Assembly: GCA_000091205.1 (NCBI GenBank)
Contig: AP006500.2
Direction: 5' to 3' (one strand)
Length of the DNA: 64,000 bases
Origin: Cyanidioschyzon merolae
Lineage: Eukaryota
The notes under the pieces are model-generated. The model had not been told where the DNA came from, ran no database searches, and worked only from the letters and a program-made list of their open reading frames with translations. Shown piece after piece: positions 1-41,872 of this stretch (the first letter of the stretch is position 1; the number at the start of each line of letters is the position of its first letter). A program made the translations under genes and the position numbers.

Positions 1-2210
1 CGACGCAGCGATGTGAGGTAACTTGCCAAACACGGTGGTCTTTGGAAAGGAGTGAACGCGAACAGCGCCTGGTATTTGTCCCCCTGATCCACCTGCACAG
101 CTTCACCTGTAACGCTCTGTTCATTCACGAACGGAAGCAGAAACATATCAAAGCAGGCAAGGTCCTCCTCGACGAGTAGCCCTTTCGTCGGTGAGGAGGC
201 CTCAGTTGTCGAAGCGCCGCTACCAAAGAGCCGCTCTGCGAGCTCCACTGCGCCCATGTCGGTTGCGGATAGACCACTCTGAACGAGCGACATCGCATCC
301 AGGGGATCTGGTGTGCCTCCGTCATGACACCGCAGCCGCTGGACGTAGACACGAGCGCGCCCGCGTTGGCGTCCCGGATCAATGGTCAGTTTCAGGGAGT
401 CGTGATCACGCTGTAGAGCATCGTGCCAGTGGGCAGCTGTGTGCGCCAAAATCTGCTGAAAGAGCCCCATGACAGCGCTGAATGCTTCTCGTGCCCAGTG
501 CGTGTTCCCAAACACATACTGTTCCATTTCGGAAAGCGGTACGAACTCAAACCCGAAACATTCCCGCGTGTTGTGGTAGGTCACAAACGCACCAACCATG
601 CGGCCTACGCGAAGCTGGAAACAGTACTTGATGAATACCGAGCGAATCATATCGTAAAATTCTCGCTCATAAGAGTACATCGGTCCACGCAAGTGCGTGA
701 TACGGTACTCCAAGTAGTCCCGGTAGTTGTCGAGATCCCAGCGAATCGGTGCAGCGGCTCGCGTTTTCAAGTCAAACGGCTCATCGGTGCGCGGGTGTCG
801 GCAATCAATCTGCGCTCGCAGGACAAAGTCCCCGCAGCGGCTGTAGTTGAAAGCCTGGTCCGGCATCGGCGAGATCGCTTCGTCCGTCAAAAGCTGGGCC
901 TGGGGACGCAGAAACTTGCGACAGAATGCACCGGGTTCCATGGTCAGCATGCGCTCCATCGAATGTCCCAGATCCATGAGGATGCTTTCGCGGTTCACGA
1001 TGCCTTTGCATGCGTCAATCGCGATCATACCGTCGAGCGGTTGGAGAAGAACGCTCACCGGTTTGTGGGCATGCCTGGTAAAATGTCGAGGCTGCCGCTG
1101 GAAGAATTCGCTGAGACCCTCTAAAGTGGTCCCCCGAAAGCTGCTCACCAAGTGATAGAGCGCCGTCAGCACGCCCGTGATCGAGGACGTTGAGGCGAGG
1201 TACGAGGCACCTTCGAGGCGCGCCACCTCGCGAAGTGCATCATCACGCGAAGCAGGTACATAGGGTGGGATGTTCTCCCAGGCGATTTCCGCCGGCTGTC
1301 GAATAAGTCGCAGGTAGGGATCAAAGTTGTAGCGCTGGGTCTCTGGGCACAGCAGCGGATGAACGCCCCCGTCTTCGACCACTCGGGAGAGGTCGTGCGC
1401 GAGGGTCGGCACACTCACATTCGGCAAACGTGCATTCGACGCTGGCGTGAGGGCAAAGCTGTTGTGCGGAGGCAGTAGCAGCTTCCACTGCCTGTCGGAG
1501 GCGATCAGCTCGGGGGGAGCGTTGCGCCACAACCGTTCCAACTCCCGCGCCGCCTGTCGCTCTGCCGCCTCGAGCGTTGTCGGCAAACGAGCCAGCGTCT
1601 CCGAGCGCCTTCGCTCTGAAAACGGAACCGGTACTGGACGCGTGCGATAGACGTAGCCTTTCGGGGGTCCCGGTGTCAGGGCACTCGACAGTAACGCTGT
1701 CGCCGGGTCGTTTCGCGTGCCTGTTGCCACGGGTGTCGGCTTGCGCTGCGCGGCCGGTACCTCCACGGCGACTTGTGGTGTCGACTGGGCCGCTACCGCC
1801 ACTTGCGTTGCAGCAACAGCGGTAGGCACTTCCGACAGCACGCGCTCTAAAAGCTTTTCAGCAGCGGAACCTACTTCTGCCGCAGGTAGCAAGTCGAGCG
1901 CTGCCGCAGCGCGATCGAAACGGTTCGAGACGGATCGTCGCACGGGATTTCTTGGCCAGCGCTTGCTATGTATCAGTCGCCTGTGATCATTAGCCCAACG
2001 AACACAAGTTGCCGTCGTCATCGCCACAGCTCCTGGAAAGCAGGCGGTGTAGAGCCCGCGCGATGGAGCACAGGATGCCGAGGTCCGTTCTTCGAGCGCC
2101 GAGGCGCCTCCTGTGTGCCGAGCTCCCGCGTTTCCCAGTGTGTCGAGGCGAAGTACTCGCCCTGAACGTGTAGCATGCTTGCTCGCGAAGCCTCGCAAAC
2201 AACCTAGCAT
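1..2210 (-). CDS. Conserved hypothetical protein, 3'-truncated by the window edge (at least 736 aa). N-terminal ~200 aa are low-complexity; the conserved core has no confidently recognisable family.
   Basis: Hand translation of the minus strand gives one uninterrupted reading frame from an ATG at 2208-2210 down to position 1. An in-frame stop lies upstream at 2373-2375. It is absent from the ORF track because it runs off the edge. The core is protein-like, e.g. ...LQPLDGMIAIDACKGIVNRESILMDLGHSMERMLTMEP...RWDLDNYRDYLEYRITHLRGPMYSYEREFYDMIRSVF.... The plus-strand track ORF 423..1124 is its antisense shadow. Confidence 0.5.
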   Translation of the reverse strand, partial: MLGCLRGFASKHATRSGRVLRLDTLGNAGARHTGGASALEERTSASCAPSRGLYTACFPGAVAMTTATCVRWANDHRRLIHSKRWPRNPVRRSVSNRFDRAAAALDLLPAAEVGSAAEKLLERVLSEVPTAVAATQVAVAAQSTPQVAVEVPAAQRKPTPVATGTRNDPATALLSSALTPGPPKGYVYRTRPVPVPFSERRRSETLARLPTTLEAAERQAARELERLWRNAPPELIASDRQWKLLLPPHNSFALTPASNARLPNVSVPTLAHDLSRVVEDGGVHPLLCPETQRYNFDPYLRLIRQPAEIAWENIPPYVPASRDDALREVARLEGASYLASTSSITGVLTALYHLVSSFRGTTLEGLSEFFQRQPRHFTRHAHKPVSVLLQPLDGMIAIDACKGIVNRESILMDLGHSMERMLTMEPGAFCRKFLRPQAQLLTDEAISPMPDQAFNYSRCGDFVLRAQIDCRHPRTDEPFDLKTRAAAPIRWDLDNYRDYLEYRITHLRGPMYSYEREFYDMIRSVFIKYCFQLRVGRMVGAFVTYHNTRECFGFEFVPLSEMEQYVFGNTHWAREAFSAVMGLFQQILAHTAAHWHDALQRDHDSLKLTIDPGRQRGRARVYVQRLRCHDGGTPDPLDAMSLVQSGLSATDMGAVELAERLFGSGASTTEASSPTKGLLVEEDLACFDMFLLPFVNEQSVTGEAVQVDQGDKYQALFAFTPFQRPPCLASYLTSLR

Positions 2211-4855
2211 GACTGGAGCGCTCCCCCCGTCTCTACACGATGAGCCGCCACCAGCTGCCCAGCAGCGCTGGAAAAGCCCACGGGCGCACGTTGCGTTCCA
2301 GCGACGGCAGGCGGCTGCGGCGCGCCCGAGGCCAACCTGACAGGCGTCCAGTTCGCTGGTATCCAAAACTTGCTATCGAGAGGGTCTTCGTGTGCTCTGT
2401 GGCTTCGCTGTCCACAAATAAGAAGAGTCAGGGGCGTGGGACAAAAGGTTTCAGGGGTTGTTTGGAAAATTAGGGGCCTCACTGCAGATGCGCTGCTTGC
2501 ACGGTGCGCTGAGCGCTGCGGGCGAGCGCCCAACACTACTGCACTCGTTACGCAACCGAGACGCCGTTACTCGGTGAAACCGAGAACAAGTTCACTCGTT
2601 TGATTGTCCGTAGTGTTGGCGAGTTGTGACGCATCAGGTAGCTGTGTTCTTGTGGGGTTAGCAAAGGGCGAGTGGCTGCTTTTCTGGGACGAATGGGCAG
2701 ACCGGTGGTGTCTGTTTCCGGAGCGATGCTCGCTCTGTGACAGTGCGCGCTACTCACAGCGCGACGCTGACTGGCAGAACGTGCAGCAGCTGGGATACCT
2801 GTATACTATGGATTACAGTGTGTAGTTGGATAGGGCTTCCCGCCTTGATCCGCGCTGCTTTCTGACTAATGTCGGCGGCGTGCGCTGGAGCACGCTCTAC
2901 CGAATACAGATCAGACAGCAGCGAAGCTTCTCAATGCGTAGAGGCGCCTGTAACTTGAAGCGCGTTACATTCTCGAGCGCGGAGTAGGAACGGCGGTGTT
3001 GTCAGGTTTGAAGGAAAGCAAACTTTCGTTTTTCGTTTTTGGTGCTTGTGGCTGCTGTTGGAACAGAAAATGGAATGATCGTCGAGGACGATTTAACTCG
3101 GATGACGACTCCAAGCTTCATCCTTGCGTGCGACGCTCGGCCGCATACGAACCAAGGTGAGCGCGCAGTACCGGCCCGTGCTGAATCGCGTAGCCACGGT
3201 TGCAGCGCTTGATACGCTGACATTCGTCCAGCGACTTCAGAGGCATCACGGATGAAGCGCAGGCACCTGTTGACGGCTCTGCATGCGAGGCGATGGTCTC
3301 GGGACAAGGGCGGCTTTCTGGAGAATCTCGCAAGAGACATGATTCAAGCAGCAATGAGGAACCTCTGAGAAAGGCGTCCAGCGCCACGAACGTTGTTACT
3401 GATGAATCTGGGAGTTTGCGCACGGCTCGATACTCGTTGGCGGCCCTCTTTCTGTGGAACGTATAGAGGGCCGCTTCCAAAGCGTTCATTCGAAGCCAAG
3501 AACAAGTACGTGCAGGTTTCGCTACCGCCCGGAGCATATCGCTCACGATTTACGAGGAACGCGGTCGATAGATCACTGCATACAACGCGAGAGCATTCAA
3601 TACGAAAGGGCTGCTCCATTCAAATCCCCAAAGAGAACCAGGTAAACAAGCACTGTGCAGTTGCAGATCGGTTATTGACGCCTAGTGCAGGAATCGAACC
3701 AGGTCTGGGCAGGATGCTCTTGCGCAGCACATGAGCCGCTACACAATGCTCCCTGCGAAGCAACCGACTCTACCTCTTCGATATAGACGACGCGCAGTAG
3801 CAGGCATTATCTATGCATGGAGTCAGAATGCTCCTGATGGTCGGATACTGGGCATTCGAAGGCGCCAACCTGCGTCTATGTGGTGGCAGGCTGCTGACTT
3901 AGCCGCTACGCCTATCGTCGACCAGGATGCCGCCATGACGCTGTGTGGAAACGCATTTGCGCATGTAAACAAGTCAAGGCCACAGCGTTGTACAGGGCTA
4001 TGGTTCCCGAACCTGGTTCCAGCGAGTGCCAGAGCCAGAGCGTCCGGTAGCTTAGTATGCAGTGAGGAGGTTCTCGGGCGTTACGGTTATGGTCGCCACG
4101 AGGCCTCTGTGGTGTTTGCAGCGAGAGTCTGGGTATCGTGGACGACCACGTGCGCCCTGGCCGCTCATTATCCACTGATGGATAGCATACGGTGCCGACT
4201 TGGGAATGAATTGGTACCGGTCCAAGTACCGAACATTCGCGTGCAACCTAAAATTTGCGTCCCGTTCCCCTGCCTCCAGAAACCACCGACTGCTTACGAT
4301 GGAGTTGGACAGACATGAGAGACCGGCGTTTGCAAAGCTAGATATAGCTGGGAGGACAATAAACCAGTCGCAGAATAAGCTCGCAAACGCCGGCGTTGAT
4401 CGCAACCGGAACAGACGCAAAGTTTTGCGTGTACCCCCCGAGTAAACGAAGTGTTCCTGTTCCAACACACTCCTGCTGAAACGGGTTATAGGCCGTAGCC
4501 GACCTAGGATCGAACGCTGCGATCCCGTGCGCTCCAGGTCAAACGTAATACCCTCGCACGCGTACACAAGTTTGCGCTATGGCCTCGTAGTGTTTCGCTT
4601 CGTCTGCCTGCCTTCTTACTTGCTCGGGGGGTCTCGATGCTTGCCTAGCGGAAACCGTAGTCCTGCGGCAACGTTCGCCACTGACTGCATTCTTGTTGTT
4701 CCGTCTCTGGGCGCAGTTGTCTCTACGCCCCGGCGGTGACGCGCAAGCCTGGGCTCACCAGCACCGCTGGGCACTGTCCCTGCAACACGGGACAGCAAAC
4801 ACAGCACCAGAGGACGTGTGTGCCTGGCCGGCTCGCTGGATTCGCTCCGAACTCG

Positions 4856-32930: not shown

Positions 32931-35900
32931 CTAGTGCAGACGAGCCAAATCATCCACGAGGAGTTTGATATGCTCGATGGATGCACCGACCTGGGCGGCC
33001 ACGAATTCCATTTCAGTGGGTTCAAGTTCCCGAAACCGCTCCACCAGATCTCCGTCCACGAATCCTCGTCGCGGTAAGTCGAAACAGGTCATGCTATGCA
33101 AGCTATTGAGGGCGCGCTCAGAAAGCGGTGTGCGCCAGTCGGCGTGCGCAAAACCCTCGACACCAAGCCGGATACTGGTGAGCGGTGAACGACGCACCCG
33201 CTCGTGGCCGTTGTCCGCAGCACCCGCTTCAGCAGGATGATCCGTCAGCGAGCGCAACGCTTTCTCCACCCGCGACAGCATACGATGTTGTGCTGGGTCC
33301 AGCGGCACGATGATGCCGATCGCTCCAGCGGTCGTTGCGAACAGCAGCGTCTGACGGCTGACGTTGTCGGCAGTCGTGGTGCCTGTCGATGCTCGCGCGA
33401 CATCCCTGGTGCTCTCGGTATCGATGGTGCTGTGACCGTTTCCAGTGCCGGCCTCTTCATTTCCAGAGGCCTCTGTGACCAGTTTTCCCCGCCGAAAGAC
33501 GTTCACCAGATCACCGAGATGGAAAGCACCCGCACGATTGAGTGCGTGGCGGAATTCCGATCGCGTTTCGTGCGGATTCCGCTGCAACGACAGCAAATTG
33601 TACGAGTTATCGGCCGCAAGGTACGTGTCCTCGTTCAGGAACGCACAAGCCGTTATCCACGCGGTCTCGTAGTCCCATGCCACCGCTTTGAGACACGGCG
33701 AGGCGCCATCGGAAGTTTCGCCTTCGGGCAGCACCAGCTGTAGCACACAGAGCGATTTCATGAGGTCTCCAACGAGAAGCTGGTCGCCGCGTGCTTCGAG
33801 GCGCAGCACGAGTACGTGCCCCAGATGGCGAGCAACTTCACGCAGTTCGTAGTCGTCGCCGTGACCCGACTGACCCCAATCGTAGAGGATCACGACGTTG
33901 TTCACGCCGGCGGCAAGGAACCGGGCAGCACTCGCCGGAAACCGACACGTGCGATCACTGGGATCCGCCAGGGCGCTCATGGTGTAGACGGCACCTGGCG
34001 TGTACAGCTCGTTCAGTAAGAGCAATTCCTCTCGACTGAATACGAGTATTCTTCCGCGGGATGGTTCCATTTCTGAAGGCAGCACATACGCAGTACCGAC
34101 GACAAAGACATCGCGTTCGGGAATCGCCACCAGACTCAGGCCGTGCTCGTTCATCGCCAAATCGTGACTGGTGATCGTCTCGAGCGTTTCGTCGTTCAGC
34201 AGACGTACATGGTGTCGTTCCTCCCCGAAAACTATCGACACGGTTAGCAGGCAGATATAGCCACGAAGGTGGGCAATGCGACGCGGTTGCTCGCGAAGAT
34301 CGTGGCGACGAATGTGCAGCTGTTGGATGTGCTCAATCCCGCCGAGTGCAAGGCCCTGCTCCGTCGCCACAGCGATCGAGTCCGGAAAACCCTTCGTGTG
34401 AAAGCGAACCGCCCGGGTGACGTCACGAAGGTTCACATTCCCACAGAATAGGGTACCGTGGTGCGCGTGGATCACAGATGCGCGTCCACATGCGGCAAAA
34501 ACGTAGCGCATTCCGTGAAGCTGCAGATTATTCAGTGCTGCAGGACGCGAACCGAGCCGTAGTTGCCGCGGATGTTGGAGTTGCAGTTCGCACTTGCTGA
34601 GATCTTCTGGCTCGGGCCCACTGCGTTTCGCATCTGGCTGTGAAACGTTAAACGCGAAGAGCCGACCATCGCCGACGGCGACGAGCAGGCACAAATGGGC
34701 TCTGCCGCCGTGGTCGGCCATCAGGCCGCCATGATCATCCAAGTAAGTCAGAAGCACCGACCTGGGGACCGACGTTGACGGCAACGCACTTTCTCGTATG
34801 CATTCCAGTTCCCAGCGATTCCCCGTGTCCTCATGGAGCCGGAACAGCCGTATTCGAGACTCTGCCCAGGTACCGAGCGCAACGATTCCGTAAGCGGCGT
34901 GTATGCAAGCGACCTCAGCCGGAAGCGTCTGGCTGCCGACTGGCACAAGGGATGTCTTCCGCTGCTGGAGAACATAGAGCTGCGCATTACTAGTTGACAC
35001 GAGAACAAGCTTATGCAACTCATCAAAAACTGCATTGGTAATTTGCTCTGATGAGGGAGGGGTCCACGCCACGGCAGGTCGCTCCAGGAGCGTCAAATCA
35101 ACGAGCCCGACATACGATGCGGTCACCCAGAGTGCAAGCTGTTCAGCTGGCAAGCGCATCGCTAGGATTGTAGCCTCATCCACAGCCAGCGATTCCACTT
35201 CAACGAGCTCATCGTGTGCTGCGAGACGAAGGACTCGTGTTTCTGCTGTGAAGGACACAACCAGAAATTCATCCCACTCGGGTGAGGTTAGTGAAGGCAG
35301 CGTGAACAGCGCCTTGATGCCATCGAGCTCCACGGCGGCATGCTCAACAAAGCCGATCCCATTTCGGATGATTCGCAATGAGCCCATTCGAGAAACTCCC
35401 GAGCATGTGATGATGTGCCCGTCGCTAAAGGAATCATCACCGGTGACGAGTAGATCTTGGATAGGACCGATGTTTGTGTAGCACTGCACCACTTGTCCGA
35501 ACCAGAGCTGACACTCGGCTCTCTCGGCTCGGGATTCCCTGCGCTCATGGCTTGATGCCGATGCAGTGGCGAATAGCGTCGTTTGCACGAGCTCAGGTGA
35601 CTCAGTCTGCGACGGCAGCAGTCGAACAAGTTGGGAGTCACCTAATGCCGAGCCGACGAAGACCAAATCACTCCCCAGGTAAGCAATCGCGCTTGCCACG
35701 CTGCTCTCGCAAACACACTCGAGGCGCATGCCCACTTCAGCACCAACTGAGAGAACATACAGAAATCCATCCCGATCGCCCAGCAAGTAGTGGGCGTGGT
35801 AGCCGGCAGCCGCAAGCATCTCAAGCCCTGTTTCGAAGTGGTCTTGTCTGTTTGCCTCTACCGATGCAGACTTGCTGCTGCCGCCAATGCCGCTTATAGG

Positions 35901-37049
35901 ACAAAAACAACGCATCGGTGCGAACTGACCGCCGTGGAAATGGATTACTTGCTTTGCGACGCCGCTGCGGCCGGGGTGGAGTGCCAGGGACGTGTCACAG
36001 GCAACCACGAATCCCCCGCAGGCGCCGTCGTTTGCTGAATCGTTCGGTGCTGGCGGCACTGGAATAATCAGCTCGGCCGAGGCATCCAAATATTGCTGTG
36101 CAATGGGTCCCTCTCTGACATCCTGCCGACCAAGAAGAATTTCATATGAGACCAGATGGCGATTATGAAGATAATCCGTGTGGATTATGGCGAGCGTTGG
36201 ATGCTCCGTCCCGATAAGGAACTCCATGCTCTGGACCTGCACAACGTCGAGCCGAACCTCAAAGGCCTCACCCATGAGGCTGCCCGGTACTACTTTCAAA
36301 AGGCCGTCATAGGCATAGACGGCTAGGCATCGCGCGCTGGGATCAAGCGCCACAAACTCACCAAGCGGGCATCGCCGGCCGAGTTTAGACGCGAGCGACC
36401 CCGCAACGAGTGTCGCCACTCCCTGCAATCTCGTGTCATACTTGATCACGGCAAAGTCCAAACGTTCCGTCAATATGAAGACAGCGTCCGTGCTCTGGTC
36501 TCCAGCATCGGACGGTAGCACCTGTACAGTGCGTGCTGTTTCCGGTACGGGTTTTAAGGGTGCTTCCACTTTGTGCCGTGAGCTTGTTCGAGCACGCTTC
36601 GAACCACTTCGCGGGGTACCCCCGTGCAGATTCAAACTGCTGAGACGCTCGGAGGGTTGCAACGCACCCACCGGGCTCGCGACCCTTGTTCCCCGAGCAG
36701 TCGCACGCTCGCACAGTCCGACACCGGGCAGTACCTCGAGTGCCGCTATTCTGCCAAAGACCGGTAAGTTCGCGTACGCGACTAACGCGCTCTCATGCGA
36801 CTTTGTGCTATCGGTAGAGACTTCATACACTTCGATTCTGTTTAAACGCACCAGAAGCACACTGGGCTGGTCGGGGGAGATGAAGCGCGCAACGCGCGCG
36901 TGCGTCACGATCGACGGTTGCGCAGCAGTAACCACGTAGAGTCCACATCCAATCGACTCTTCAAGCGGGAGTTGAGCGCTTTCCTCGATTGCTGGAGCAC
37001 CTGCTACGGACTCGCTCACACTAACAGGCTCCAGGCTGTCCGTGGACAT
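32931..37049 (-). CDS. DDB1: DNA damage-binding protein 1 (DDB1; CPSF-A/SF3b3 triple beta-propeller family).
   Basis: 1372-aa ORF. The N-terminus ...LYVVTAAQPSIVTHARVARFISPDQPSVLLVRLNRIEVYEV resembles the DDB1 start (YVVTAQKPT...LEIYVV). The C-terminus ...FVDGDLVERFRELEPTEMEFVAAQ...IKLLVDDLARLH matches the DDB1 tail ([22 protein letters not shown]...EELTRIH). Confidence 0.85.
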   Translation of the reverse strand: MSTDSLEPVSVSESVAGAPAIEESAQLPLEESIGCGLYVVTAAQPSIVTHARVARFISPDQPSVLLVRLNRIEVYEVSTDSTKSHESALVAYANLPVFGRIAALEVLPGVGLCERATARGTRVASPVGALQPSERLSSLNLHGGTPRSGSKRARTSSRHKVEAPLKPVPETARTVQVLPSDAGDQSTDAVFILTERLDFAVIKYDTRLQGVATLVAGSLASKLGRRCPLGEFVALDPSARCLAVYAYDGLLKVVPGSLMGEAFEVRLDVVQVQSMEFLIGTEHPTLAIIHTDYLHNRHLVSYEILLGRQDVREGPIAQQYLDASAELIIPVPPAPNDSANDGACGGFVVACDTSLALHPGRSGVAKQVIHFHGGQFAPMRCFCPISGIGGSSKSASVEANRQDHFETGLEMLAAAGYHAHYLLGDRDGFLYVLSVGAEVGMRLECVCESSVASAIAYLGSDLVFVGSALGDSQLVRLLPSQTESPELVQTTLFATASASSHERRESRAERAECQLWFGQVVQCYTNIGPIQDLLVTGDDSFSDGHIITCSGVSRMGSLRIIRNGIGFVEHAAVELDGIKALFTLPSLTSPEWDEFLVVSFTAETRVLRLAAHDELVEVESLAVDEATILAMRLPAEQLALWVTASYVGLVDLTLLERPAVAWTPPSSEQITNAVFDELHKLVLVSTSNAQLYVLQQRKTSLVPVGSQTLPAEVACIHAAYGIVALGTWAESRIRLFRLHEDTGNRWELECIRESALPSTSVPRSVLLTYLDDHGGLMADHGGRAHLCLLVAVGDGRLFAFNVSQPDAKRSGPEPEDLSKCELQLQHPRQLRLGSRPAALNNLQLHGMRYVFAACGRASVIHAHHGTLFCGNVNLRDVTRAVRFHTKGFPDSIAVATEQGLALGGIEHIQQLHIRRHDLREQPRRIAHLRGYICLLTVSIVFGEERHHVRLLNDETLETITSHDLAMNEHGLSLVAIPERDVFVVGTAYVLPSEMEPSRGRILVFSREELLLLNELYTPGAVYTMSALADPSDRTCRFPASAARFLAAGVNNVVILYDWGQSGHGDDYELREVARHLGHVLVLRLEARGDQLLVGDLMKSLCVLQLVLPEGETSDGASPCLKAVAWDYETAWITACAFLNEDTYLAADNSYNLLSLQRNPHETRSEFRHALNRAGAFHLGDLVNVFRRGKLVTEASGNEEAGTGNGHSTIDTESTRDVARASTGTTTADNVSRQTLLFATTAGAIGIIVPLDPAQHRMLSRVEKALRSLTDHPAEAGAADNGHERVRRSPLTSIRLGVEGFAHADWRTPLSERALNSLHSMTCFDLPRRGFVDGDLVERFRELEPTEMEFVAAQVGASIEHIKLLVDDLARLH

Positions 37050-37099
37050 GCTTCAGCTACGCTTTTTCAGCAGCGCCTAGGCACGGGTAGCGTACAACG

Positions 37100-39000
37100 T
37101 GGCGCCAACGACGTTGATGCGTGCGTGTTTTGCGCGCACGCACGCATCCGGCGGTGCGTGCGCGCGGCAATTCTGTATAAGGATGCGCTGAGGACGGAGC
37201 GTGCCTCATTGAATGAGGCCTGGACGGACCACTGGACAGAGCTGCATGAAAACGTAACTGGGCACTGCCAAGACCGAATCTATTGGCAACAGTATGCTGC
37301 AGAACTACCGCGCCTCGAACCGGTACCGGAATGGAACGACCCAATCTTCTGGCCTGAATCTGTTCGGACCCTGCTATGCGCAAGCAACCGCAAAACACCT
37401 GGCATCGGCGGTATCCCTGCGGAGAGGATGAAACTGGCGACCCCAAAAGACGGGACAACAGGGACACCATCGATACCAGATGAACCTGACACAACGTTAG
37501 GTAAACGCCTTGTGGAGCTCATCCAACGCATGTTCGAAGAGGCGTACATCCCGGATGTATGGAGGACTGTCGAGGTCGTACCGATCCTCAAAAAGGACTC
37601 TGACATACACACACACACAGACATGAACAGACATGAATATCTACCGGACTATGCGCCTCATCCCGTAAATCATGAAGCTACTTTGCGCCATTCCCAAGAA
37701 ACGGACTCAGATAGGCCTCGTGGAACGCAAGTTCTTCGCCCCAGAACAGGCTGGATTCCGGAGCCACGAGGAGTGCATGAGCCATGCCCTGACCCTAGCT
37801 GAAGTGGTGCAACGTCGCTCCATTAGCGGCCAACAACCAATTTACGTATGCTTCATCGATTTCCAAAAGGTTTTTGACACGGCCCCGCATGAGGCTCTCT
37901 TTTTGAATATGGAACGAGCCGGAGTCTCCGGAAAGTGCCTAGCGTTCTTCCGTGCGCTCTATGTAGACTCATGGATGCACATCCGACTGGGCGACGGCTC
38001 AAGAATCCTTTCGATAAGGATCTGCCATGGACTGCGACAGAGCGACCCCACATCCCCGCTCCTTTTCAATATCTTCATCAACGATCTGCTGAACAACTGC
38101 AGGCAATACGGGCTTGAGGTGCCGTGGATAGACTGTGGAGAGCCCGGTGAAGAGCGCCCACATGGGAACCGCCTCGCAGGCCGTCTATTTGCGGACGATG
38201 TCGTGCTGTTGGCACCCGCCCCGGAAACGCTTGCTGCTAGCATGCAACAAGTCAGCGCCTGGGCCGATCGCTGGGAGATGAGCATAGGAGCATCGAAGTG
38301 CGGCGTCATGGTCATCCATGGAGACTCGCAGCGCATTCGCAGTCGCTCGTGGCGGTTGCAGAATCAGGAAATTCCGATCGTGGAAAAATATCGCTACCTG
38401 GGGGTCTGTCTCACGCCGACGCTCGACGAAAAGGCACACGTTGACGAGATGATCGCCAAGATGCATAGAGGTACAGCGATCGCACGCCCATTCCCATCCG
38501 ACCCCTCTATCTGCATAGCAATCCGTACGAGGGCACTAAGGATGTGTATCATCCAGCCTGCGACCTGGGGTACTGAATGGTGCGGCATGAAGCACCCAAA
38601 TGTCTCGCGTCTGCAGACAGCCGCCAACAGGGCAATGCGACTCGTTGGTGTTGGATGCTCAATGTAGAGCAGAGCAACCACCGCGCTGGCACTCGGACTT
38701 GAACTCCAAATACCCTCGACAGAAGCGATAGCAGCAGGCTGCCGGGCATGTATACGGGCCAAAGGGCCCACCATGTACACCTGGTTCAGTCGGAGTTTCA
38801 TGAAGACCCCAACCCACCGCAAGAACACTTGGATGAAATCGACGCAGATTTGGGTGAAGCGCCTCTTGGGCGAAAACACGCTCCCCAATCGTTCCCCAGA
38901 AATATAGAAGGCTCCCGCCGCCTCAAACGCACGGTTCATGAAACAGTATGGTAACGCTGAAGTCGAAATATTCGCATCGGAGACGTTGATCGGACGTAGC
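37100..39000 (+). mobile_element. 5'-truncated, degenerate non-LTR retrotransposon (LINE) fragment with a reverse-transcriptase domain only; no endonuclease or ORF1.
   Basis: The pre-RT region (...VPILKKDSD...) lies in track ORF 36900..37802. RT domains continue in a different frame in 37672..38667: ...NYRP-like KLLCAI..., QPIYVCFIDFQKVFDTAPHEAL, SPLLFNIFINDL and FADDVVLLA (the F/YADD box at about 38188-38199), then ...KYRYLGV.... The frame break lies near an (AC)n/'acagacatgaacagacatgaat' low-complexity patch at about 37605-37650. Boundaries are approximate. Confidence 0.65.
37672..38667 (+). pseudogene. Reverse transcriptase ORF remnant of the LINE fragment, out of frame with the upstream RT segment.
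   Basis: Contains RT motifs 3-7 including FADD, but is separated by a frameshift from the N-terminal RT motifs encoded in frame 36900..37802. It lacks endonuclease and C-terminal domains. Confidence 0.6.
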
Positions 39001-39835
39001 ATACGCATTAGAATCTAGAGTATACATACATGTACTGGTGGGCGGCACTGGAATCCCCGGAGCTTGCTCGACGAGCTCATAGGATCGCAACAATGCGCGT
39101 TGGTGTACTCTGACTGACCTCGGCTCTATGCTGCATCGGAACACGGGACGCATCCTGGGAATCACACTTTCACTCTTTTGGGATTGTGAATCATGAAACT
39201 CTGACACACTTGTTCATAAGATGTGCGCGTTGACAACAGGAATGCAGATACCTTTTTTAAAGACAGCGGCTTCTCTGTATTTCTATGGAGGAAGACCAGA
39301 GGTGGCTCGCAATTGCTGTAGCCCTCGCGATGAATTGGCCTCTAATCGAGCCACGGCGCTCACTGGCGGGTACCAAATGTACATGCCACCCTCTAAGCGG
39401 AAGGTCCTGCGAACGGGACCACAGCTCGGGTCCAGCGCTTGTGCAACTCCCCAGAGCAAGTTGCGGATCAAAGGCTTGCGTCGCGAAACGGCAACGCATT
39501 CTAGACACGAATACGAAGCGGAGACTCGGCCGCCAACATTCATCTCCACTGTCAACTTTCTCCGACGCGTTGTGCCGCGAAGACAGTCCTGTGTCAGCAG
39601 CCAGTTCCAGCACACATCCATGACGACACCCGACCCCGTACCAGGTGAACGATACCTCCAGCGTACATCCGCCACGGGATAGCAAAACAGTACAGTCTCC
39701 GAGCTGCACCCGCATCCACGCTACGAGCGCTATTGCGTACGCTGAACGGAGCCTCGACGCCGGGTGAAACGTTCAAAAACGCCCATCATCTCCGCTGCCA
39801 GGCATGCGACATGGAATTCGAAGACTGGTTAAACG

Positions 39836-41872
39836 ATGGACGATTTCCAAATCCCTGATATCCAATGCACCTTTCGGTTTCATGGGTCCGTATGCATACA
39901 CACGCAAACAGAGCCTGAGGGATTGGGGGCAATCGTCGGGATTCGGCCGCCTCGCACCGGTCGGGTGTGCTGCGCAGCGGCGGCGACGCCACCCGGGGGA
40001 TACCTGCCACACTGGACACAGCACCAGACGAGTGTGCGGCGTTTCAGAGAGCCCGTGTTGCTGCTCATGAGACACCGCCGACGAAAGTTGCCGGGTAGCG
40101 GACACCAAGCTGAACGCCGTGCACCTGGTCGGCTGCCGCGCTTCGTTGTCGACGCGGTAGCTGATGACGAGTCCATCGCATCATCTGAAGCAGAAGACGA
40201 AAACGCGGTGCTCGGGGAATCGGTTGCTCTCGACGGCCTAGAGAGCAAGAAGCTGCGCAGTTTAAGTGGTTTACGTGGAAGCTCTACAGCAGATCTCGAT
40301 CCGAGTCTCGAACAGGCAGCCGATGCCGAAAGCGCTTCCAGTTCTGAAGCGGAGGTAAGCGAGCAATCAAGACGTCTACACCTTGCAAAGGCGTACCTGG
40401 AGCGCATCGGAGCAGCAAGGTTTACTGAAGACGATCTGCACCAGAGAGCAGACGAAGACAGCCTCGAGGCACGAGATGCAACCGCTCTTGGTGACGCAAG
40501 CGACGATGACACTGACAGTGCGAGCGACGCGTGGAACGAGGTTCTCTATAGAGAGGCGCAGCAACTTCGCGGACAGTACTATGCTTCTGAAATGGCCTTC
40601 GATGATGTGGAATCCATGCTTCCTGCTGAACCTACGCTCACGGCTTTCGGTCACAAAAGGCCCCCGACCTGTATCACCTTTTTGCCCGACGGTGAGGTGC
40701 TCGGGCCTCCCCGATACGCCATCACTGGTGGAAAGGATGGAGCACTGCTTCTATGGGATATCGAGCGTGGTGCCAAAAGCATTGTCTCCGCAAGTGCGAC
40801 CTCTTCCGCCGGGTCCGCCGCAAAGCCCGAGATTCTCTGCGTCGCAGCGTCGCGTGACGGGCGGTTGGTCGCTTCCGGCAGCCGCGATGCATCCATTCGT
40901 ATCTATGATTTGCGACAGCGGAACATATCTGATGACTCTCCCTCGATACCTATCCTTTCGCTTGTACATGTCGCGCGGGGTCATCGGGGTGCCGTCAGCG
41001 GACTGGCCTTCTTTCGGGACGTTTTCCGGAAACATGCCGGACCGGGTGTTTCAATCGGCGTCGATCGCAACTCCACAGAAGAGAGTCTCTTCAGCGCCTC
41101 CTTCGATCGAACGCTTCGTTTCTGGAGCATAGAGCGTTCCAAAGCTGCACCGCAATCCATTCTGGATTCAGGCCCAGATGCCGAGGCCGGTCTGTACGAC
41201 GGCCGCAACATGTCCCCGTGGAGCGTGCACTACGTCGACAGCTACTACGGCCACGAAGAAGAGGCGACGAGTCTCTGCTGTGCGGCGTGGGGCAGGCTAT
41301 TATCTGGCGGCCGAGATCGCACCGTGCGTTCTTGGAAAGTCTACGATGATACCCAGCTTGTGTACAGAGCACCTCGAACTGCTGGTGCACAGATCGGTAC
41401 CAGCATAGACTGTGTTGCGTGGGTGAGCCCGACCACCTTCGTATCGGGTGCTGATGATGGATCGCTTTCACTCTGGTCTACAGCGAAGAAGAAACCGGTC
41501 CATAAGATTCTTGACGCCCATAAGAATCCCGTATGCCCGTGGATATGTTCGGTGGTGAGCCCTGAGGCCGCCAATCTGGTTTGCAGCGGCTCTGCGGACG
41601 GTTGCGTACGCCTCTGGCGTGTTCGTATGCAAGCATCTGTGAAAGCCAGCGCCAAGAGCGCGAAACGGCACGGGTCCTTACCAGAATCCCTTGAGGCGCT
41701 TGGGACGTTGCCATTCGCCGCCAGCGGGTTCTGTAATGGCATTGATTGTGTTCTTCAGAAGCGTACTCTTTACATTACAGCGGCTGTGGGTCAGGAACAT
41801 CGATTCGGTAAGTGGTACGTCGACCGAAGCCTTCGGAATGGACTCGCGTTCTGGCGGATACCGCTCGCATGA
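39836..41872 (+). CDS. RRP9: U3 snoRNP WD40-repeat protein Rrp9/U3-55K-like.
   Basis: Basic/acidic N-terminal region including ...SRRLHLAKAYLERIG..., matching the U3-55K block (EKKLRLAKLYLEQL). It is followed by multiple WD40 repeats (SGSRDASIRIYDL, SASFDRTLRFWSI, SGGRDRTVRSWKV, SGADDGSLSLWS, SGSADGCVRLWRV). The true start may be an internal ATG, e.g. at 40067. Confidence 0.65.
   Translation: MDDFQIPDIQCTFRFHGSVCIHTQTEPEGLGAIVGIRPPRTGRVCCAAAATPPGGYLPHWTQHQTSVRRFREPVLLLMRHRRRKLPGSGHQAERRAPGRLPRFVVDAVADDESIASSEAEDENAVLGESVALDGLESKKLRSLSGLRGSSTADLDPSLEQAADAESASSSEAEVSEQSRRLHLAKAYLERIGAARFTEDDLHQRADEDSLEARDATALGDASDDDTDSASDAWNEVLYREAQQLRGQYYASEMAFDDVESMLPAEPTLTAFGHKRPPTCITFLPDGEVLGPPRYAITGGKDGALLLWDIERGAKSIVSASATSSAGSAAKPEILCVAASRDGRLVASGSRDASIRIYDLRQRNISDDSPSIPILSLVHVARGHRGAVSGLAFFRDVFRKHAGPGVSIGVDRNSTEESLFSASFDRTLRFWSIERSKAAPQSILDSGPDAEAGLYDGRNMSPWSVHYVDSYYGHEEEATSLCCAAWGRLLSGGRDRTVRSWKVYDDTQLVYRAPRTAGAQIGTSIDCVAWVSPTTFVSGADDGSLSLWSTAKKKPVHKILDAHKNPVCPWICSVVSPEAANLVCSGSADGCVRLWRVRMQASVKASAKSAKRHGSLPESLEALGTLPFAASGFCNGIDCVLQKRTLYITAAVGQEHRFGKWYVDRSLRNGLAFWRIPLA

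Follow-up and report, generated by a model that had tools for sequence, protein, structure and literature searches.

A 5'-truncated, decayed LINE copy in the divergent spacer between DDB1 and RRP9 of Cyanidioschyzon merolae

Retroelements of Cyanidioschyzon merolae and their relatives

The genome paper of Cyanidioschyzon merolae reported 26 class I elements, which are related to reverse transcriptases (RT) and most similar to non-LTR retrotransposons (PMC1955436). C. merolae is a model organism, and since its genome is unusually poor in transposable elements (TEs; 0.7%, 26 retroelements), every one of its retroelements has been catalogued. The element described here, which lies between DDB1 and RRP9 on chromosome 18 of strain 10D, is already known: it is annotated as 'retroelement' (BAM82485.1) and its family was described in PMC1955436. 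From its annotation we presume that it was counted among the 26 class I elements of Nozaki et al. 2007. A 2022 preprint, based on a re-annotation with EDTA, reported only class II TEs in C. merolae. This conflicts with the RT family seen here and in Nozaki et al. 2007, and we suppose that the reason is that EDTA is not aimed at LINEs.

Two C. merolae proteins annotated as 'retroelement, alive' (P0002 and P0003, on the 839,707-bp and 852,849-bp chromosomes) belong to the same family, with 82-84% amino acid identity to our copy over the common region, and their RT motifs and (AC)n tract are alike. In contrast to them, the copy at the DDB1-RRP9 locus is truncated at consensus position ~1483, carries a 10-bp duplication as well as TAA and TAG stops, and is heavily diverged in its 3' third. 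On the other hand, P0002 and P0003 stop just before the FADD motif (…WIDCGDAR*), whereas our copy is in frame there. A frameshift before FADD is common to the copies annotated as 'alive'.

Outside Cyanidioschyzon, the nearest named relatives are RT-domain proteins of Galdieria yellowstonensis (P0009, P0010 and others; 39-43% amino acid identity), whose C-terminal zinc-knuckle region (CPCC…ET…H) is the same, although they come from a different genus and family. The copy also resembles the 5'-truncated, dead-on-arrival L1 copies of mammals, in which the 3' part is likewise kept, the 5' part is missing, the junction is sharp and the decay is neutral, and L1 ORF2p has detectable homology to this RT. 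Unlike L1, however, the copy has no recognisable poly(A) or target-site duplication, and its family has a single ORF and no APE domain.

We derived a family consensus of 4252 bp from 60 related metagenome loci. The full-length copies measure ~4250 bp, have both ends in common and have no LTRs; the family has a 5' leader of ~530 bp, which is absent from our copy, and its consensus ends at the 3' side with …GTAATGAAAAA(A)n. The sequence-only reading had proposed an RT remnant on the + strand between the two genes, and an RT profile bears this out, as the ORF at 37672-38667 matches Pfam RVT_1 with E=7e-20. Among the PDB sequences this RT matches only R2 proteins (2e-12) and L1 ORF2p (3e-6), and the translation contains LINE-type RT motifs, namely domains 0-1 (PGIGGIP, VVPILKK), NYR and FADD. 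Internal 5' starts are found in the copy at 37168-39794 and in others (e.g. L027 and L025), as opposed to the full-length members, and no long direct repeats were found around our copy. The element is thus a remnant of a non-LTR (LINE-type) retrotransposon, and its family is the sole retrotransposon family known in C. merolae. The leads on its clade conflict, because the PDB E-values favour R2 over L1 whereas distant relatives carry the APE domains PF03372 and PF14529; no clade assignment specific to the LINEs of Cyanidioschyzon was found in the literature.

There is no evidence of an ORF1 beside the single ORF of the family, which has a C-terminal CCHC zinc knuckle, CPCCG(D/N)ETPETLT(H/Y)LGLQC. 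An encoded endonuclease was not recognised: the N-terminal protein P0016 had no match to Exo_endo_phos at E<=1, P0011 had no Pfam domain past the zinc knuckle, and tblastn with the APE domain of the relative P0036 had no match in 65 loci, the homology of P0036 to the family beginning only after this domain. These searches concern the family as a whole; the fragment at 37168-39794 lacks that region anyway. As the family consensus has no recognisable endonuclease, its integration mechanism may be non-canonical. Within the window, that is, the whole stretch of 64,000 nt analysed, blastn and tblastn found no second copy. Regarding the orientation of the copies, 19 element ends face the 5' end of a gene and 8 face a 3' end; a preference for the promoter side is only suggested by these counts, as the ORF calls were crude.

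Extent and lesions of the copy

The copy extends on the + strand from 37168 to 39794 and corresponds to consensus positions ~1483-4106 of 4252 (BLAST and local alignment). Its ends were defined against the related loci and the consensus built from them. The local alignment starts on consensus position 1469 or 1483 and ends at 4106, and because the copy starts at ~1483, 1.48 kb are missing at its 5' end. The 5' junction falls exactly between 37167 and 37168 and is sharp in the alignment with 14 copies; in BLAST against 58 family loci the matches likewise begin at 37168, their ends falling from 39633 to 39740. On the 3' side the copy is secure up to 39740 (BLAST), whereas 39741-39794 is weak (local alignment only), and the element probably ends somewhere from 39740 to ~39940. 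The extent of 37100-39000 given in the sequence-only reading has to be replaced by 37168 to at least 39740, weakly 39794. Beyond 39794 no score above shuffled controls was obtained for the tail of the consensus (its last ~146 bp), for a poly(A) or for a target-site duplication. One candidate duplication (37143-37167 and 39953-39980) was rejected, its score being reached in 18% of the shuffles.

The same reading had described a 5'-truncated, frameshifted LINE RT fragment, and this was correct, since the copy aligns only from ~1483 and has a frameshift and premature stops. The motifs that it quoted, QPIYVCFIDFQKVFDT, SPLLFNIFINDL and FADD at 38188-38199, are all there, and the RT is indeed split into two frames at the (AC)n patch, with mod 3 = 0 up to ~37625 and mod 3 = 1 from ~37627. 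The segment at 37168-37625 (+, start mod 3 = 0) encodes the pre-RT linker and RT domains 0-1 (…NRKTPGIGGIPAE…, …IPDVWRTVEVVPILKKDS), and in tblastn P0002 and P0016 align to 37170-37643 with 81-82% amino acid identity. The (AC)n tract and a 10-bp tandem duplication (ACAGACATGA x2.1, 37617-37637; tandem repeat finder) occupy 37600-37637 (+). When 30 copies were aligned over the segment 37560-37700 (109 to 141 nt), ours exceeded the shortest of the in-frame copies by 22 nt, which shifts the frame by +1. The orthologous contig L002 has the 10-bp duplication too, and a further 12 bp are found in strain 10D only. At 37666-37668 (+) an in-frame TAA takes the place of the TCA (Ser) of most copies, so that IPS-IMKLL becomes IP*IMKLL; this TAA is also present in L002 and in some paralogous copies.

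Downstream, the RT core ORF of 331 aa at 37672-38667 (+), annotated as 'retroelement', is an exact match to BAM82485.1 / XP_005538521.1 and is 84% identical to P0001. It carries RT motifs 3-7 in one frame, including FADD, and ends at a TAG (38665-38667) that is CAG in the family consensus. The frame changes near 38865-38898 through a second frameshift, and the CCHC knuckle at 39156-39227 is decayed, with WESHFHSFG…HETLTHLFIRC instead of the WESHCPCCG…PETLTYLGLQC of the family, three cysteines being replaced.

The annotation of this ORF as a protein, together with its FADD and motifs 3-7 kept in frame and the absence of the family's common frameshift before FADD, which many copies do have, could suggest a domesticated or still active reverse-transcriptase gene. 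However, RT domains 0-2 are put out of frame by the upstream frameshift and the TAA stop, and the ORF is cut at the premature TAG. In the L002 orthologue, moreover, a 1-bp insertion at 38142 splits it into pieces of 159 aa and 175 aa; as one environmental strain breaks the ORF again, it is not conserved. The substitutions between the 10D copy and L002 (3, 7 and 8 at codon positions 1, 2 and 3, respectively) show no third-position bias. An active or domesticated gene is therefore already effectively refuted, and we leave almost no probability to it.

Empty site, shared insertion and probable history of the copy

In Cyanidiococcus yangmingshanensis (L063, JANCYV010000014.1) DDB1 and RRP9 are also divergent, but they are 179 bp apart and there is no retroelement between them. 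The locus is otherwise syntenic, since gene order and orientation are common to both species over more than 20 kb (SNF2-RING, ER, COG2 and DDB1 on one side, RRP9, HSP33, IF-2B and actin on the other). Given that distance, the element split a compact gap shared by the two genes. Compared with the C. merolae flanks, the 179-bp spacer gave only a 17-nt GC-rich match, within the range of the shuffles. The same insertion is present at 98-99% identity in environmental strains (L001, L002, L045, L055, L062 and L064).

A non-functional LINE remnant in the DDB1-RRP9 spacer, with the following history, is in our opinion the best explanation and very probably the right one. The copy would have integrated in + orientation into a short divergent spacer, whose ancestral length may have been ~180-250 bp, and this would have happened in the Cyanidioschyzon lineage, later than its split from Cyanidiococcus. 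Truncation at the 5' end is usual for target-primed reverse transcription, and from this truncation and the family membership we infer that the copy integrated in this way. During the process 1.48 kb would have been lost, among them the 5' leader and the beginning of the ORF, and with these parts missing the copy would have been dead on arrival. Its decay would then have included the +1 frameshift by a 10-bp duplication in the slippery (AC)n tract, the nonsense codons at 37666 and 38665 followed by a frameshift near 38880, and the loss of the zinc-knuckle cysteines, of a recognisable tail and of the target-site duplication. The 5' part would most likely have been overwritten by gene conversion from other copies. 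At present the fragment probably does nothing for the cell, as its decay and the comparison of loci suggest; the promoters would have been pushed ~2.6 kb apart, each gene keeping its proximal native DNA (118 bp for DDB1, 127-326 bp for RRP9).

Regarding the overwriting of the 5' part, the copy is a mosaic. Identity profiles show an old, diverged 3' part at 38935-39794 (+), comprising the C-terminal domain, the 3' end of the ORF and the 3' UTR, with 60-75% nucleotide and 43% amino acid identity to the family, as against 90-97% and 87% in the part upstream. The alignment to the consensus is colinear across the boundary at ~38935, and P0011 aligns in tblastn to 38865-39452 with 43% identity (E=5e-35). 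In a patch at 38768-38900 (+), 16-18 of ~130 sites differ between 10D and four orthologous environmental contigs, and the two versions have their matches in different sets of paralogous copies. We read this patch as probable ectopic gene conversion between dispersed copies, a reading which depends in part on metagenome contigs that are possibly chimeric within repeats. Where the copy looks young, 10D differs from the orthologous contigs by 2.9%; the figure falls to 0.8% in the old part and to 0.2-0.5% for the flanking genes.

The contrast between the younger 5' 1.75 kb and the older 3' 0.85 kb is most likely due to ectopic conversion from other copies, which would have overwritten the 5' part. 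LINE lineages can swap terminal modules, and the boundary at ~38935 is sharp; the mosaic could therefore also represent an old subfamily with a different 3' module, without any gene conversion. We consider this unlikely, because a close 3' module was present in none of the 60 loci, the best match being 77% over 75 bp. The two versions of the patch with their different paralogue matches, and a 5' part that diverges 3-6 times faster than the unique flanks between orthologues, are both expected under ongoing conversion.

The neighbouring genes and their promoters

DDB1 (UV-damaged DNA binding protein), at 32931-37049 on the - strand, is an intronless gene of 1372 aa, its ORF being an exact match to BAM82484.1, with the RSE1/DDB1/CPSF1 propellers in Pfam and matches to DDB1 chains in PDB (E=3e-107). 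The start proposed at 37049 is confirmed by this match, by an in-frame stop two codons upstream and by the N-terminus of the Cyanidiococcus orthologue, which is of similar length. An ORF overlapping the first DDB1 codons does exist (36900-37802), as had been noticed, although it begins with GTG in the ORF list and not with TTG; upstream of 37168 it has no homology to the family and is thus open by chance.

The element had also been said to adjoin the ATG of DDB1. It is very near, but not immediately upstream, since 118 bp of native DNA without family homology (37050-37167) lie between the ATG and the 5' junction. This flank contains two overlapping and perfect 12-bp inverted repeats, GATGCGTGCGTG/CACGCACGCATC at 37116-37148 and GCGCGCACGCAC/GTGCGTGCGCGC at 37132-37165, in a dense palindromic GCGTGC cluster right next to the LINE junction. 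Motifs like ATGCGTGC are also found in the Cyanidiococcus spacer, a similarity without statistical significance. Across the window neither ATGCGTGC nor TGCGTGCG is enriched, the observed counts being reached in 28 and 15 of 100 shuffles respectively, and both are only locally clustered at 37116-37165. An Rfam scan of the whole 64,000 nt gave no match.

An element that starts just 118 bp from the ATG, and that replaced the DNA further upstream in the ancestral spacer, might supply or disturb the promoter or the 5' UTR of DDB1. We regard this as highly improbable. A single spacer of only 179 bp serves both genes in Cyanidiococcus, so 118 bp of native DNA are plausibly sufficient for DDB1, and the palindromic cluster is located in this native flank. 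Furthermore, it is the truncated end of the element, antisense and without the 5' leader of the family, that faces DDB1, and DDB1 is intact and nearly identical in all the strains that bear the insertion. A dead element so close to an essential gene had been considered notable; the closeness is real, but it loses weight because in this compact genome a distance of 60-500 bp to the nearest ORF (of at least 150 aa) is common among the other copies of the family.

On the other side, RRP9 (U3 snoRNP 55K, WD40 in Pfam) has its best PDB matches to U3 small nucleolar RNA-interacting protein 2 (E=1.6e-30), and Rrp9 chains match too. The start at 39836 given in the sequence-only reading is probably wrong, as three orthologues begin at M78 of that long ORF; translation probably starts at this codon (40067), and the gene would occupy 40067-41872 (+). 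In three environmental contigs (L045, L055 and L062) a 1-bp deletion at 39925 would break the ORF extension 39836-40066. This extension is probably non-coding and forms part of the RRP9-proximal flank (39795-40066), in which as much as ~146 bp of the element's tail may be present in unrecognisable form.

The fragment has the same orientation as RRP9, the palindromic cluster, possibly an upstream element shared by both genes, was left next to DDB1, and one of the ORFs of the fragment is listed as a gene in the genome annotation. All this would fit a role of the fragment in RRP9 expression, either by read-through from the old shared promoter, with a long RRP9 leader or the annotated 'retroelement' as its transcript, or through the decayed 3' end acting as the RRP9 promoter. 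Nevertheless, at least 272 bp of non-element DNA, or at least ~127 bp if there is a cryptic tail, precede 40067, and the old 3' part differs by 0.8% between strains as against 0.2-0.5% in the neighbouring CDS, which is consistent with neutrality, although the numbers are small. We therefore think that a role in RRP9 expression is very unlikely. In the papers and their supplements we found no H3K27me3, expression or TSS information specific to this locus.

A bolder proposal, which is clearly improbable, is that the insertion cut an ancestral bidirectional DDB1/RRP9 promoter of ~180 bp in two and that RRP9 would now depend on the LINE, with a leader of ~3 kb or initiation in the decayed 3' end. 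Related to it is the idea that this family without endonuclease would be kept homogeneous by gene conversion and would tend to insert, or to be retained, near the promoters of genes.

The locus itself is of little importance and our additions are descriptive: we give the boundaries of the element, list its lesions, place the insertion in time, propose a more probable start for RRP9, and note that the element landed in a very compact bidirectional spacer and did no visible harm. If RRP9 did depend on the fragment, a promoter would have been rewired by a single one of the 26 retroelements, in a genome that is among the poorest in TEs of all free-living eukaryotes. The lack of an endonuclease domain, the frameshift in the 'alive' copies and the signs of conversion concern the family rather than the DDB1-RRP9 locus, and these family traits could be of interest for the persistence of TEs in streamlined genomes.

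The element and its neighbouring genes

The element between DDB1 and RRP9 is an ordinary, already annotated dead LINE fragment, rightly spotted by the sequence-only reading. Its 331-aa RT ORF (37672-38667, + strand) is identical to BAM82485.1, labelled 'retroelement'; given this identity and a published account (PMC1955436), the element had been annotated before, and described at the level of its family. According to that account the C. merolae genome has only 26 class I elements, all of them closest to non-LTR retrotransposons and three with an intact RT ORF. An EDTA-based re-annotation (bioRxiv 10.1101/2022.10.24.513474) places every one of its 1755 C. merolae TEs in class II; this list misses the RT-bearing non-LTR family, which is plain here and in Nozaki 2007. 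The RT assignment was confirmed by Pfam (RVT_1, E=7e-20) and by PDB matches to the R2 and L1 ORF2p reverse transcriptases, and the translation contains the RT motifs that had been quoted (FADD at 38188-38199 among them) as well as the split of the RT across two frames.

DDB1, on the minus strand at 32931-37049, is a 1372-aa ORF whose product matches BAM82484.1 exactly (Cyanidioschyzon merolae 10D, 'UV-damaged DNA binding protein') and has a PDB match with E=3e-107. The start at 37049 is borne out by the N-terminus of the orthologue and by a stop codon in frame two codons ahead of it. Regarding RRP9, the top PDB matches of its product are U3 snoRNA-interacting protein 2 (E=1.6e-30), Rrp9 chains matching too, and the exact 678-aa product has no entry in the NCBI-derived protein collection. 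The start at 39836, which had been proposed for this gene, is probably wrong: three orthologues begin at M78 of the long ORF (window 40067), and in three environmental contigs (L045, L055 and L062) the extension would be frameshifted by the loss of 1 bp at 39925. The true start is most likely 40067, and the extension (39836-40066) is probably non-coding.

The span of the element, given before as 37100-39000, actually runs from 37168 to at least 39740. By BLAST, homology to the window starts at 37168 in every family copy, and the alignment of 14 copies gives a clean 5' junction at 37167|37168. The first homologous base corresponds to position ~1483 of the 4252-bp family consensus, therefore 1.48 kb are missing at the 5'-end. 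At the other end BLAST homology stops between 39633 and 39740, and local alignment reaches 39794 (consensus 4106/4252); the terminal ~146 bp of the consensus sequence, an A-rich tail and a target-site duplication were not detectable in this copy above shuffled controls. The element represents 85-94% of the DDB1-RRP9 spacer, a figure set by the choice of the RRP9 start.

The LINE family and the lesions of the window copy

A protein search for relatives found a family 80-87% identical in JGI metagenomes and in the C. merolae proteins labelled 'retroelement, alive', and more distant RT relatives in Galdieria (39-43% identity). The metagenome scan gave 60 family loci. Full-length copies are ~4250 bp long with ends in common (all-against-one BLAST), starting with CAAACTAGTCGCAAACTATTTA and ending in …GTAATGAAAAA(A)n, often with A-rich flanks. 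The consensus has one ORF, which begins ~530 bp in. An endonuclease domain was not detected in this Cyanidioschyzon family (loci L003-L062, e.g. L012 5061-9325; proteins P0015, P0016 and P0019). Where relatives have their APE domain, the family proteins show only the stub 'FASWNICG', after which come ~150 aa of low-complexity, K-rich sequence, and homology to the APE-bearing relative P0036 starts only past its APE domain. Many copies are dispersed despite the lack of a detectable endonuclease.

Many copies share a frameshift just upstream of FADD (…PWIDCGDAR*; consensus ~2440, window ~38125-38145). Two 'alive' proteins, P0002 and P0003, carry it, therefore this label may not mean a functional RT; the window copy and the related protein P0001 are in frame at this site.

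What breaks the RT frame of the window copy is a tandem duplication of 10 bp, ACAGACATGA, which a tandem repeat search placed at 37617-37637. It sits within an (AC)n tract, in a segment of 109-141 nt across copies; between 37560 and 37700 the window copy exceeds the shortest in-frame copies by 22 nt, which amounts to a +1 shift. In the orthologous environmental contig L002 the duplication is present too, likewise with a +1 shift, but the extra in-frame 12 bp of the window copy are absent. Among 30 family copies, this tract between RT domains 1 and 2 (window 37600-37640) is hypervariable in length, with recurrent frame shifts. Further lesions are a premature TAA at 37666-37668 (TCA in most copies), a premature TAG at 38665-38667 (CAG in the consensus), a frame change near 38865-38898 and a decayed CCHC knuckle at 39156-39227 with three cysteines gone. 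In L002 the RT ORF is cut in two by one extra base pair at 38142, and substitutions between the window and L002 have no third-position bias; therefore the annotated RT ORF is not under selection.

Promoter side of DDB1 and RRP9

It had been suggested that the fragment may supply or disturb the DDB1 promoter. Such a capture is unsupported: DDB1 keeps 118 bp of native sequence (the entire ancestral-type spacer measures 179 bp), and this flank includes two dense, overlapping, perfect 12-bp inverted repeats (37116-37165). The Cyanidiococcus spacer has ATGCGTGC motifs that loosely resemble them, although the likeness is not significant. Furthermore, DDB1 is faced by the truncated end of an antisense element without its own 5' leader, and for other copies of the family a distance of 60-500 bp to the nearest ORF (at least 150 aa) is common, so such closeness is normal in a gene-dense genome. 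The element lies upstream of RRP9 in sense orientation, and a role there found no support either.

The inverted repeats are built from GCGTGC/GCACGC and abut the LINE junction, and 4 of the window's 11 TGCGTGCG sites fall inside 45 bp of the cluster. The cluster is a candidate shared promoter element.

The nearest ORF (at least 150 aa) presents its 5'-end to the element ends 19 times and its 3'-end 8 times, a difference that is not significant and that comes from crude ORF calls with some loci duplicated across samples. Family copies may be inserted or retained on promoter sides.

Age of the insertion and its mosaic structure

In Cyanidiococcus yangmingshanensis (L063) DDB1 and RRP9 are adjacent and divergent, only 179 bp apart, and gene order is kept on both sides. 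The insertion therefore occurred in the Cyanidioschyzon lineage, and the site it hit was a very compact bidirectional spacer. The same junctions are present, at 98-99% identity, in environmental Cyanidioschyzon contigs, L001 and L002 covering the DDB1 side and L045, L055, L062 and L064 the RRP9 side; the contigs break within the repeat.

From 37200 to ~38900 the copy is 90-98% identical to the consensus, and near 38935 this value falls sharply to 50-75%; protein identity to the family is 87% before the boundary and 43% after it. The alignment is colinear through this boundary, which argues against two independent insertions. The window diverges from the orthologous contigs by ~2.9% in the part of the element that looks young, by 0.8% in the old one and by 0.2-0.5% across the flanking genes. 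Between 38768 and 38900 there are 16-18 differing sites against the four RRP9-side contigs, and the two versions each resemble different paralogues, which suggests either that dispersed LINE copies undergo ectopic gene conversion or that the repeat has produced chimeric assemblies. Alternative explanations of the mosaic age are an extinct subfamily having another 3' module and chimeric metagenome assembly. We infer instead that the insertion is old and that ectopic gene conversion has overwritten its 5' 1.75 kb and goes on patching this part.
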